Positions 2,510-46,384 of a stretch of 64,000 nucleotides of DNA are shown in pieces. The notes beneath the pieces are model-generated. The model ran no database searches and was not told the DNA's origin. It was given only the letters and a program-made list of their open reading frames with translations. Each line of letters opens with the position of its first letter. The stretch's first letter is position 1. The position numbers and the translations under genes were made by a program. Source of the DNA: an uncultured Opitutia bacterium. Its GTDB lineage: Bacteria; Verrucomicrobiota; Verrucomicrobiia; Opitutales; Opitutaceae. The stretch spans positions 8,231-72,230 of the forward strand of contig CAIJZY010000048.1 in the NCBI GenBank assembly GCA_903825285.1. The letters run 5' to 3'.

Positions 2510-2616
2510 GTTGAAAGAGGCGGTCAGTTGAAAGTGAAAGTTGAAGGACGCGGCCTATGACCAAACCCTGTGCGACGTGGCCGCCGCATTCAACTTTCAA
2601 CCCTCAACTTTCAACC
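2510..2616. repeat. GTTGAAA-word heptad repeat arranged as an imperfect inverted repeat (locus 1 of 5)
   Basis: The left part 2510-2547 is GTTGAAAGAGGCGGTCAGTTGAAAGTGAAAGTTGAAGG. The right part 2589-2616 is TTCAACTTTCAACCCTCAACTTTCAACC, which is the complementary word. Confidence 0.85.
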
Positions 2617-2647
2617 GCGTCTAGGCGGCCGGTGGCCGCCTAGACGC
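2617..2647 (-). terminator. 14-bp perfect palindrome overlapping the htpG stop codon
   Basis: GCGTCTAGGCGGCC-GGT-GGCCGCCTAGACGC. The htpG TAG (2640-2642) lies inside the stem. No U-run follows on the minus strand. Confidence 0.45.
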
Positions 2648-4511
2648 TCTCCAGCAGCTTGTAGAGCCGCGCGACCATCGGCGTGGCGTCGTCGAGCAGG
2701 CCGGCGGAGATGAGGGCGTTGTCGAGGATCTGCTCGGCGACGAGCTTGGCCTTGTCGGGCGCGGCGGTGTGCGTCTCGAAGAGCCGCTTCATCACGGCGG
2801 AGCGGGGGTTGATCTCGAGGTTCACGCGCAGCGGCGAATCGGCGGCGTCCTTGTTCATGGCCTTCATCATGCGGCGCATGTGGGGCGACATGAACTTGTC
2901 GGCGTTGAGGGCGAGGGCGGGGGAGTCGACCAGGCGGTCGCTGGCCTTCACCTCCGCGACGCGCTCGCCGAGGGTGGCCTTCAGCCAGGTGGTGAGGGTC
3001 TTCGTGTCGTCCGCGCTCAGGGCGCCCTCGGGCTTGGGCAGGTCGGCCAGCTTGACGTCGGCGTGGTCGGCGGCGGTCAGCTTCCTGCCGTCGAACTCGC
3101 GCACGTGGCTCATCACGTACTCGTCCACCGACTCGTAGCAGAACAGCACCTCCAGGTTGCGGGCCTTGAAGCCCTCGAGGTAGGGACCGCTCTCGATGGC
3201 CGCGCGGTTGGGCCCGACGAGGTAATAGATCTCCTTCTGGTCCGCGCCGAGGCGGGAGACGTAGTCGGCGAGGCTCGTGGTCTTGCCCTTCTCGGTGAGC
3301 GAGGACTCGAACCGCAGCAGCTTCACGAGCTGCTCCTTGTGCGTGTGGTCCATGGCCGCGCCCTCCTTGAGGAAGAGCCCGAACTCCGCGTAGAAGCCCG
3401 CGTAGGCGTCGGGCCGGTGCTTGGCCTCCTCGTCGAGGAACTTGAGGAAGCGCTTCGTGATGACCTTGTTCAGCTTCTCGATCAGGGTGCGGTCCTGCAT
3501 CGTCTCGCGCGAGATGTTCAGCGGCAGGTCCTCGCTGTCCACGACGCCCTTGAGGAAGCGCAGCCACTCCGGCAGGAGGTCCTTGGGCTGGGCGTCGATC
3601 AGGACCTTGCGGCAGTAGAGCGCGACGCTGGGCTCGGCGCGGGCGAAGCCGAACTTCTCGGTGTTGTCCTGCGGGACGAACAGCAGGGCGTTGATCGAAA
3701 TCGGGGCGTCGGCCGAGAAATGCAGCCGCAGGCGCGGCTCGTCGAAGGCATGGGCCTGGAACTTGTAGAACTCGGTGTACTCCTCGTCCTTGATCTCGTT
3801 CTTCGCGCGGAGCCAGAGGGCCTGCACGGTGTTGACGCGCTTGCCGTTGAGGTTGATCGGGAACGAGACGAAGGCGCTGTAGCGCTCGAGGATGCCCTTG
3901 ATCTGGGAGTCGGACGCGTACTCGGCGCAGTCGTCCTTCAGCTCGATCACGAGCTTGGTGCCGCGGGTCTGGTCGGACACCTCCTCGATCTCGTAGCTGC
4001 CGGAGCCGTCGCTGGTCCAGACGTGGGCGGGCTCGTCCACGCGCCAGGAGCGGGAGTAGACCCGGACGCGCTGGGCGACCATGAAGGCGGAGTAGAAGCC
4101 GACGCCGAACTGGCCGATGAGGTTGGCGCGGGCCGAGGCGCTGTCCTGGCCCGCCGGGGCCTCGCCGGAGACGGGGGCGAGCGACTTGAGGAACTGCTTG
4201 GAGCCGGAGTGTGCGATGGTGCCGAGGTTCTCGATCAGCTCGGCGCGGGTCATGCCGACGCCGCTGTCCTGGATCGTGATGGTCTTCGCCTTGTCGTCGG
4301 TGGTGACGCTGATCGCCAGCTCGAGCGTGTCGTCGGCGACGGTCTTCTCCGTCAGCTGCGTGTGGCGGAGCTTCTCCAGGGCGTCGGCGGCGTTGGACAC
4401 CAGCTCGCGGACGAAGATCTCCTTATGCGTGTAAAGGGAGTGGATGACGATATCGAGCAGCTGCTTGATCTCGGCTTGGAACTCGAATTTCTGCGGCGTG
4501 GCGGTGGACAT
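2640..4511 (-). CDS. htpG: Molecular chaperone HtpG (Hsp90)
   Basis: 623 aa. The N-terminus (FEFQAEIKQLLDIVIHSLYTHKEIFVRELVSNAADALEKLR) is the classic Hsp90 ATPase signature. The full length is colinear with HtpG. Confidence 0.97.
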   Translation of the reverse strand: MSTATPQKFEFQAEIKQLLDIVIHSLYTHKEIFVRELVSNAADALEKLRHTQLTEKTVADDTLELAISVTTDDKAKTITIQDSGVGMTRAELIENLGTIAHSGSKQFLKSLAPVSGEAPAGQDSASARANLIGQFGVGFYSAFMVAQRVRVYSRSWRVDEPAHVWTSDGSGSYEIEEVSDQTRGTKLVIELKDDCAEYASDSQIKGILERYSAFVSFPINLNGKRVNTVQALWLRAKNEIKDEEYTEFYKFQAHAFDEPRLRLHFSADAPISINALLFVPQDNTEKFGFARAEPSVALYCRKVLIDAQPKDLLPEWLRFLKGVVDSEDLPLNISRETMQDRTLIEKLNKVITKRFLKFLDEEAKHRPDAYAGFYAEFGLFLKEGAAMDHTHKEQLVKLLRFESSLTEKGKTTSLADYVSRLGADQKEIYYLVGPNRAAIESGPYLEGFKARNLEVLFCYESVDEYVMSHVREFDGRKLTAADHADVKLADLPKPEGALSADDTKTLTTWLKATLGERVAEVKASDRLVDSPALALNADKFMSPHMRRMMKAMNKDAADSPLRVNLEINPRSAVMKRLFETHTAAPDKAKLVAEQILDNALISAGLLDDATPMVARLYKLLESV

Positions 4512-46245: not shown

Positions 46246-46286
46246 GCGGTGCCGCCCACGCTCATGCAAAGCGGAGCGTTTCGCTA

Positions 46287-46384
46287 GTTGAAAGTTGGGC
46301 GGGTGAGAATTGCCTGCAGGGAACCGAGAAAAATGCCGGCGGGCCTGCGTCCGGCCCTCAACTTTCAGCCATCAACTTTCAACC
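46287..46384. repeat. GTTGAAA-word heptad inverted repeat (locus 5) between proB and the helicase gene
   Basis: GTTGAAAGTTGGG (46287-46299) faces CTCAACTTTCAGCCATCAACTTTCAACC (46357-46384). Confidence 0.8.

Follow-up and report, generated by a model that had tools for sequence, protein, structure and literature searches.

What are the short GTTGAAA repeats that recur in the intergenic spacers of an uncultured Opitutaceae bacterium, and what keeps them beside the start codons of its genes? We addressed this question in a stretch of 64,000 nt (hereafter the window) from an Opitutaceae (Verrucomicrobiota) metagenome-assembled genome, in which a first-pass annotation had pointed out a dispersed family of tandem 7-nt units at five loci and had considered terminators, leader structures, and protein-binding sites as possible roles. 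The explanation that we favor, at a probability of roughly 0.6, is that the GTTGAAA repeats are the terminal heptad arms of small insertion elements resembling the intervening sequences (IVSs) of 23S rRNA genes. A complete element comprises a G-rich (GTTGARR)n array after a stop codon, a PF05635 gene encoding ~120 aa, and a C-rich (YYTCAAC)n array before the next start codon. Loci 1, 4, and 5 of the window are hairpin members without an open reading frame (ORF), and locus 2 is a solo C-rich arm that is kept as the 5′ leader of htpG.

Heptad arrays and the gene that they enclose

Exact GTTGAAA words on both strands of the window numbered 14, compared with 1.61 ± 1.31 in the dinucleotide-preserving shuffles from which word-count expectations were taken, and the 12-mer GTTGAAAGTTGA had 18 matches with up to two mismatches where 0.77 were expected. 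All matches to both words were confined to locus 1 (2510-2616), locus 2 (4525-4547), locus 3 (8044-8073), locus 4 (43150-43246), and locus 5 (46287-46384), which bears out the dispersed family that had been described. Tandem Repeats Finder, used for all tandem arrays, reported a period of 7 and 2.9-4.3 copies at the five loci, the unit length being that of heptanucleotide long simple sequence repeats (LSSRs). Such A/T-rich words are conspicuous because the window is 70% G+C. The family is real, but GTTGAAA is not special as a word, being one of many heptad flavours.

The context that shaped our reading of the repeats came from the HtpG-anchored loci of 80 related species, all of them Opitutaceae, Opitutales, or unclassified Verrucomicrobiota. 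In the livK-livH spacer of six of these (L004, L014, L018, L074, L076, and L077), inverted GTTGARR / YYTCAAC arms surround an ORF of ~120 aa, and the same gene is found at this spacer in L030, L034, L049, L067, and L082. The 358-410 nt loops encode a PF05635 (23S_rRNA_IVP) / TIGR02436 protein of the four-helix-bundle type (E = 1e-34) that also has a weak match to PF22296 (bAvd-like) and whose nearest solved structure, 2GSC from Xanthomonas campestris, was deposited with five chains. Across 32 species the livK-livH spacer presents a decay series: the cassette is intact in 11, its gene is frameshifted in L035, a C-terminal remnant accompanies the 3′ arm in the window, L012, L023, L045, and L081, a solo 3′ arm is found in L053 and L056 and a solo 5′ arm in L071, and the series ends in short G-poor spacers without heptads. 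In the window, the last ~40 codons of the PF05635 gene (8084-8215, minus strand, ending in TIARNQGLLRAEEYEQLYASALEIVRMLTGLHAALIR and a stop; hmmsearch E = 6.5e-11, tblastn E = 5.6e-11) are followed by the four units of locus 3 (8044-8073, minus strand), which end 8 nt before the start of the livH-type permease gene. Locus 3 is a decayed PF05635 cassette of which the 3′ arm and a gene remnant survive. Relatives thus carry the enclosed ORF between the same arms, and in the window it is represented by the locus 3 remnant, loci 1, 2, 4, and 5 being ORF-less.

The association between gene and heptads extends to other operons and other organisms. Homologues with 64-68% identity were found after a tripartite ATP-independent periplasmic (TRAP) transporter gene, at livG/livF, and at a sensor kinase/response regulator pair; together with livK/livH, all four operon contexts have GTTGARR / YYTCAAC arms and are oriented as the operon. 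A second PF05635 subfamily, with thousands of homologues, occupies spacers that separate a macB-type ATPase gene from a permease gene or one permease gene from another, and in both contexts is always bracketed by GCGGANT heptads; here the 3′ arm is translated as the tail of the protein, and the stop codon overlaps the next ATG. In a distant organism (L159) a PF05635 copy has GGCAACA / TGTTGCC arms, and in an Azospirillum 23S rRNA gene a copy with GAGGACR heptad arms occupies the helix-45 region, as a classical IVS. Searching the PLSDB plasmids with tblastn returned 25 records, 23 of them cyanobacterial (Nostoc, Calothrix, Trichormus, Anabaena, and others), and heptad or near-heptad arrays adjoin the gene in all 16 plasmid homologues examined (13 inverted, 2 direct, 1 one-sided), the Azospirillum copy being one of the 16. 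Heptad arms thus flank PF05635 genes in four phyla, each subfamily with its own flavour, and in 27 of 35 genes the consensus heptads on the two sides are reverse complements of each other with at most one mismatch.

Two further observations concern these homologues. On the cyanobacterial plasmids L192, L196, and L205, heptad-armed PF05635 genes reside inside CRISPR-cas operons, the gene following cas6 and preceding cas4 in both Pseudanabaena and Anabaena sp. 90, and following cas10 and preceding cmr3 in Picosynechococcus. Among the 240 homologues listed, of about 13,000 matches, most have a longest contig of 0.5-3 kb, which fits repeats that break metagenome assemblies.

Alternatively, rather than simply forming RNA stems, the arrays may be bound by a protein whose contacts with nucleic acid recur at 7-nt intervals, in a regulatory or mobility network; the candidate is the PF05635 pentamer, each subfamily of which would recognize a flavour of its own. 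Such a network would account for the tracking of flavour with subfamily, GTTGARR going with subfamily 1 in four contexts, GCGGANT with subfamily 2 in two, and other flavours elsewhere. In its favor, too, the family includes bAvd-like proteins (by the weak PF22296 match), 2GSC is pentameric, and a study of Nostoc heptamers lying near start codons postulated an unidentified partner that binds them (bioRxiv 2022.06.06.494920). However, gene and arms that are co-inherited as a unit would produce the same tracking with no binding involved, the four or more flavours of the window are accompanied there by no more than a PF05635 pseudogene, and in Coxiella burnetii the authors saw no sign that the homologous S23p protein is made in vivo and judged its ORF to be decaying (PMC4990558). 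We consider this reading distinctly unlikely. A wider proposal, in which PF05635 proteins and heptad arrays form one system, each subfamily recognizing its cognate 7-nt flavour on RNA or DNA, is one that we put forward tentatively and with more doubt than belief; the ORF-less hairpins and solo arrays, among them the cyanobacterial short tandemly repeated repetitive (STRR) type, rRNA IVS stems, and the Opitutaceae copies, would then be non-autonomous members or regulatory targets.

Pairing and polarity of the arms

We surveyed repeats in ~1.38 Mb of Opitutaceae DNA from these relatives, calling genes with a crude codon-position model of our own whose calls cover ~79% of the surveyed DNA. This wider search, extending beyond the window, identified period-7 arrays as the dominant intergenic repeat: there were 98 of them, 86 intergenic, compared with 7, 6, 21, and 3 intergenic arrays at periods 5, 8, 10, and 11, respectively (range 3-29 across periods 5, 6, and 8-11), and the arrays of periods 6 and 9 were mostly coding. 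Both the excess of heptads over other unit lengths and their concentration in non-coding DNA are those of LSSRs. Flavours in Opitutaceae include CTCTCAA/CTTTCAA, GCGGATT, CGAAAAT, CGAACGC, CTCAGCT, GAGTAGC, and CCGGAGA.

An inverted partner, defined by at least 75% identity at a distance of at most 650 nt, was present for 53 of the 86 intergenic arrays, compared with 12 of 86 in a complement-only control. The gaps between arms form two groups, one of 15-215 nt, in which a single gap exceeds 151 nt, and one of 358-410 nt. Duplexes between an element's own arms were predicted at -49 to -97 kcal/mol, in the manner of an IVS-type inverted stem, and at two-armed loci the arms are able to pair in several registers, 7 nt apart. 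The long imperfect hairpins that had been proposed for the window were recovered in part. Loci 1 and 4 fold strongly (2496-2640, minus strand, -73.2 kcal/mol, z = -4.81; 43140-43260, z = -5.24 on the plus strand and -5.82 on the minus strand), as does a hairpin of another flavour at 47528-47655 on the minus strand (-68.7 kcal/mol, z = -7.68), while locus 5 pairs weakly. Both orientations, said to occur at four loci, are present at three (1, 4, and 5), the arrays of loci 2 and 3 having one orientation. These solo arms are predicted to fold with their heptads unpaired (4512-4580, z = +0.2; 8037-8110, z = +0.7).

The arrays also have a consistent polarity with respect to genes. Of the 34 arrays found no more than 45 nt before a called start, 30 have a G-poor sense strand (mean G 0.14, C 0.38), and several run into the ATG; the distances to start codons are approximate because of the crude gene model. 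The C-rich copies abutting start codons that had been noticed in the window are therefore a general feature in ~1.4 Mb of Opitutaceae DNA. In the window itself, the CTTTCAA-sense arrays had been placed 8-40 nt before minus-strand starts, and we measured about 14, 13, 8, and 41 nt, the last of which, at the helicase gene, shortens to 17 nt should translation begin from the TTG at 46269. Shine-Dalgarno-like (GGAG-like) motifs precede 3 of the 54 called window genes, and positions -5 to -1 before their starts are 57% C, typically cgcc/ccc ATG. Two-armed elements combine a G-rich 5′ arm with a C-rich 3′ arm in 25 cases and show the opposite in 8, a property that is identical when read on either strand.

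These regularities bear on the possibility that the arrays are neutral simple-sequence repeats, generated by a polymerase slippage that would favor 7-nt units, functionless, and only incidentally associated with the gene. The heptamer excess of many bacteria has been so ascribed (Mrazek 2007, as cited in PMC4692102 and PMC4679880), close relatives can carry different flavours in the same orthologous spacer, and there is no G-U asymmetry between the arms, all of which slippage would accommodate. However, slippage does not make matched inverted arms 40-400 nt apart, as seen for 53 of the 86 arrays, and it leaves unexplained the 30/34 polarity at starts as well as the consistent bracketing of one gene family. 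Neither does it agree with the lack of copy-number variation among same-species contigs (L001-L003, loci 1-3) or with the persistence of htpG leader arrays in many species. We regard it as quite improbable.

Even less credit is due to the idea, raised in part by the first-pass annotation, that the hairpins act as terminators, attenuators, or masks of translation initiation, which we consider extremely improbable. Some hairpins do lie between convergent genes (43150-43246 and 40791-40894), stems are strong, and 3′ arms end 8-40 nt from start codons. However, no U-tract follows them, a consensus scan found no intrinsic terminator at any heptad locus, and most hairpins are located between co-directional genes of one operon. 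Masking is further contradicted by the solo arms, which lack a pairing partner, the conserved htpG leader among them: those of htpG and livH are predicted to be unstructured. A scan with the sigma-70 promoter consensus gave no match at any heptad array either.

We propose instead that the arms of these IVS-like elements would pair in the operon transcript as a near-perfect stem of 20-35 bp, looping out the insert, whether or not it holds the gene, and placing the stop codon of the preceding gene close to the start codon of the next. By analogy with the rRNA IVS of Coxiella, the stem would probably be cut by RNase III, and the C-rich 3′ arm could then serve as an unstructured, Shine-Dalgarno-independent leader of the downstream gene. 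Use of the 3′ arm as a leader would explain both its retention during decay and its consistent polarity.

Several points weigh against this interpretation. We infer in vivo pairing, RNase III cleavage, and leader function from analogy and polarity statistics. Mismatches between arms on the sense strand show no excess of G-U (35 G-U vs. 44 A-C), and hence no positive sign of selection on RNA pairing; a DNA-level origin of the symmetry, through mobility or recent copying from arm to arm, would explain the arms equally well. The preference of arms for their own partner is slight (-74 kcal/mol for own-arm vs. -66 kcal/mol for cross-species duplexes among 14 cassettes), because all 14 share one flavour. 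The arms of locus 5 pair over ~11 bp, with no repeat pair of 12 nt or longer (z = -2.79), and in two homologues (L192 and L204, from Pseudanabaena and Gemmatirosa) the arrays are direct rather than inverted. The window has no intact PF05635 gene. By inspection, the loop sequences of loci 1, 4, and 5 are unrelated to each other and to the cassette ends, so that descent of these loci from a gene-carrying cassette is conjectural, and the PF05635 gene could instead have been inserted into pre-existing hairpins.

Turnover between relatives and the individual loci

The comparison of orthologous spacers between relatives revealed gain, loss, and decay of copies. Three contigs of the same species (L001-L003) align without gaps over loci 1-3, leaving a copy-number change of the phase-variation type unsupported; a fourth (L084, 99.1% identical) has one gap, whose place relative to the arrays was not located. 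L085, a relative whose helicase is 93% identical to that of the window, differs at every orthologous spacer examined. It has a CTCGACY flavour between pyrH and frr, a non-heptad element between frr and proB, a 2.2-kb insertion in the locus 5 spacer, and a 28-nt G-poor spacer in place of the GAGTAGC hairpin found at 38.9 kb of the window. At the latter, the sole pair of filled and empty sites compared, there was no target-site duplication. The position of locus 1, downstream of htpG, is taken in the nearest relatives by a hairpin of the CGAACGC flavour.

Another reading is selfish DNA of the repetitive extragenic palindromic (REP), REP-doublet hairpin (REPIN), or miniature inverted-repeat transposable element (MITE) kind, moved by a transposase encoded elsewhere, e.g., a REP-associated tyrosine transposase (RAYT), with the PF05635 gene as passenger or neighbor and any RNA effects secondary. 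The hairpins are indeed inverted doublets in intergenic DNA, forming long hairpins as REPs, bacterial interspersed mosaic elements (BIMEs), and REPINs do; there are several families per genome, a window hairpin is missing from the 93%-identical relative, the cassette occurs in different operon contexts, many PF05635 genes are on very short contigs, as repeats are, and symmetry at the DNA level fits the lack of G-U bias. On the other hand, the arms are not REP units, which are imperfect palindromes of 20-40 nt, since they have no internal palindromes and fold unpaired when single; the first-pass annotation had likewise recognized no REP, BIME, or CRISPR type in them. Nor are they CRISPRs, the units being 7 nt long and contiguous and the paired blocks inverted, rather than direct repeats of 24-48 nt separated by unique spacers of similar length. 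The conserved interior of a MITE is absent, as loops are not conserved between copies, and so is target-site duplication at the one filled/empty pair. Among the genes adjoining arrays, the only ones scanned with Pfam, there was no transposase, and the strand polarity at start codons is not what random insertion would produce. We therefore find selfish DNA of this type unlikely.

In contrast to this turnover, the 5′ leader of htpG persists across many species. It is G-poor in all 80 species (average 12% G, 41% C) and is composed of YYTCARC units in 17 of them, the reverse complement never being used. In the window it is represented by locus 2 (4525-4547, minus strand), a solo C-rich array, CTTTCAACTTTCACCTTTCAG, that ends 13 nt before the ATG of htpG (2640-4511, minus strand). 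Upstream of the leader array is a conserved promoter-like box, TTGAYTT ... TAAACT, present in 67 of the 80 species in the form cTTGAYTTTTT, ~15 nt, and gCTAAACTAgcgggctc (4547-4600 in the window), which a simple sigma-70 scan does not call. We considered whether the repeats themselves could be a sigma-32 -35 box (CTTGAAA) or a sigma-70 -35 box, and rejected this possibility because TTGAAA is antisense to the adjacent genes and a separate box exists upstream of the htpG array. The htpG leaders of L054 (~4165-4275) and L070 (~9890-10000) have 9-nt units, GTCTTCCAA / GTCTTCCGC, instead of heptads and are equally G-poor. In addition, a dispersed hairpin family with the core GGAGCGCATTGCCCYCAATGCGCT / GGAACGCGTTGTCCCCAACGCGTT was seen downstream of htpG or in the livK-livH spacer of L009, L012, L020, L023, and L034.

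The gene names given previously agree with Pfam for nucleoside hydrolase, HtpG, livH-type permease, M19 dipeptidase, and UvrD-type helicase, and Pfam supports proB as well. Locus 1 separates htpG from the nucleoside hydrolase gene (IU_nuc_hydro, 1539-2495, minus strand). Its start-side arm (2510-2547, minus strand), C-rich YYTCAAC on the sense strand, ends 14 nt before the ATG at 2495 and pairs with 2579-2613 in several registers; its upstream (5′) arm (2589-2616, minus strand) reads GGTTGAAAGTTGAGGGTTGAAAGTTGAA on the sense strand. Over 26 nt, this 5′ arm equals the plus-strand reading of the locus 3 array, upstream of the livH-type permease gene (7146-8036, minus strand), and could pair with the locus 3 arm. 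The two have in common the irregular pattern GTTGAAA-GTTGAGG-GTTGAAA-GTTGAA (26 nt), which indicates copying rather than independent slippage. Next to the 5′ arm, a perfect 14-bp GC-rich palindrome that is not a heptad repeat (2617-2647, minus strand) overlaps the htpG stop codon.

Locus 4 lies in the spacer of two convergent genes. Its first units had been noticed to form part of the dipeptidase coding end, and the TGA stop of this M19 dipeptidase gene, which ends at 43169 on the plus strand, sits within a GTTGAAA unit; it belongs to the left arm, AGTTGATAGTTGATGGTTGAAATTTGAAAG (43150-43179), which is separated by 37 nt from the right arm, CTTTCAACTTTCAACTGTCAGTTTTCAACT (43217-43246), the arms being 30 nt each and 80% complementary. 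At locus 5, between proB and the UvrD-type helicase gene (44236-46245, minus strand), the four-unit arm (46355-46384, minus strand; GGTTGAAAGTTGATGGCTGAAAGTTGAGGG on the sense strand) comes just after the proB stop, and a short decayed arm (46287-46298, minus strand; CCAACTTTCAAC on the sense strand) is nearest the helicase start. Directly upstream of the helicase ATG is a conserved stretch, CGCTTTGCRTGAGCGTGGG, found at 46246-46275 in the window and at ~9950-9975 in L085, which may be regulatory or part of a longer ORF.

Heptad arrays occur in about ten of the ~35 spacers of the window, and three further period-7 families, GAGTAGC, CAGAGRT, and AAATYCG, had been overlooked by the earlier reader. 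GAGTAGC forms a hairpin at 38934-39065 (minus strand; fold z = -4.8), in the spacer that separates a SufC-like ABC ATPase gene from the gene upstream of it, and another at 47533-47645 (minus strand) in the frr/proB spacer, with arms of 30 nt that are 90% complementary. A CAGAGRT array of 7.4 units with a short inverted partner (31204-31302, minus strand) is situated upstream of clpP. Two AAATYCG arrays occupy the pyrH/frr spacer (48197-48295, minus strand), the downstream one running into the frr ATG, and no significant hairpin was predicted for them (z = -0.59); AAATYCG arms of 45 nt with 71% complementarity are found between two convergent genes at 40791-40894.

Inverted repeats that are not built of heptads were also observed. 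A perfect 33-nt repeat, CGTCATCCTGAGCGAAGGCGAAGGATCGCTGTT, with arms 89 nt apart, is located in a convergent spacer at 27256-27410, and a similar element, GTCATTCTGAACGAAGTGAAGAATC, is present in the frr-proB spacer of L085 (~6470-6560). A 29-nt repeat at 752-848, 93% complementary with 39 nt between its arms, has the core GTGGGACTCAGGAAATCAGGG and represents a non-heptad hairpin family. In an Rfam scan of the window the fluoride riboswitch was the sole family found, so that the repeats were covered by none and no rRNA was detected; this riboswitch (RF01734, 40.5 bits, 28674-28752, minus strand) is directly upstream of a CrcB-family gene (28251-28649, minus strand), an ordinary pairing.

Relation to known repeats and intervening sequences

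Bacterial heptanucleotide repeats were first noticed decades ago, yet no function for them has won acceptance, and the S23p / four-helix-bundle family, recognized for about as long, has no known role outside the Avd proteins of diversity-generating retroelements. That the same arms surround the gene, form ORF-less hairpins, and lead into housekeeping genes offers a concrete starting point from which both problems can be tested. It also bears on how operons tolerate insertions between coupled genes and on how translation proceeds in a high-G+C genome without Shine-Dalgarno sites, and it cautions annotators that heptad spacers are not ordinary terminators.

The link between gene and repeats looks undescribed in the searchable literature, although subscription papers may differ. 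In that literature, outside which subscription-only papers fall, we found an incidental observation in Coxiella as the only mention of PF05635 together with heptamers, and no report of such cassettes between protein-coding genes or in Verrucomicrobiota. Heptamer LSSRs as such have already been described (Mrazek 2007, as cited in PMC4692102 and PMC4679880).

Two resemblances were considered and set aside. The cores of integron attC sites (GTTRRRY / RYYYAAC) do not fit the other flavours, and the arrays are flanked by housekeeping genes, with no integrase in the vicinity. The T7 epsilon enhancer (UUAACUUUA) is similar to one flavour only.

Among dispersed intergenic hairpins, REP/BIME, REPIN, and Neisseria Correia elements (PMC2649163) likewise occur in several families and between operon genes, and those of the Correia type are both bound and cleaved by RNase III (PMC2649163). 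The Opitutaceae elements differ from these in that their arms are tandem heptads, their loops are unconserved, and no link to a RAYT or transposase and no target-site duplication were seen, one filled/empty pair having been examined. The GGGAATC repeats of Xanthomonas and GGGGAYT repeats of Nostoc (PMC4692102) are intergenic heptamers that include some inverted pairs and vary between close relatives, but they are G-rich and G-quadruplex-forming and have been interpreted as such. As 2GSC comes from X. campestris, a member of the genus with the GGGAATC heptamers, it offers a lead as a candidate link between gene and repeats. The TAACTGA repeats of marine Beggiatoaceae (PMC4679880) end a few nucleotides from start codons, in spacers without Shine-Dalgarno sequences, have no predicted structure, and have been suggested to act in translation. 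They differ in being of one flavour, in being inverted in 1 of 170 sets, and in having no associated gene reported.

The cyanobacterial STRR sequences and stem P6b of the Nostoc trnL intron (PMC4476775) are similar in that they are non-coding 7-nt units of several classes, with complementary-heptad stems and replacement of one class by another at a single site in P6b. They belong to another phylum than the 70% G+C Opitutaceae genome, and the searchable papers draw no connection to PF05635. The likeness to STRRs drawn here is one of kind.

The closest relatives are the 23S rRNA IVSs with an S23p ORF from Coxiella burnetii, Leptospira, and Brucella (PMC4990558), which have the inverted stem around a PF05635 ORF and its frequent decay in common with the Opitutaceae elements. 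In Coxiella, the 5′ strand of the stem holds three to four GACAGAT heptamers immediately ahead of the S23p ORF; how many there are depends on the strain, and the RNase III cut falls where the first of them begins (PMC4990558). The rRNA IVSs sit in rRNA helices, whereas the Opitutaceae elements lie between protein genes of operons or are ORF-less, all copies in the window being between protein-coding genes, and excision by RNase III has been shown for the rRNA cases only. On balance, the GTTGAAA family is best classified with the IVS-like elements, as a heptad-armed kind that occupies mRNA spacers of Opitutaceae and includes ORF-less and solo-arm derivatives.

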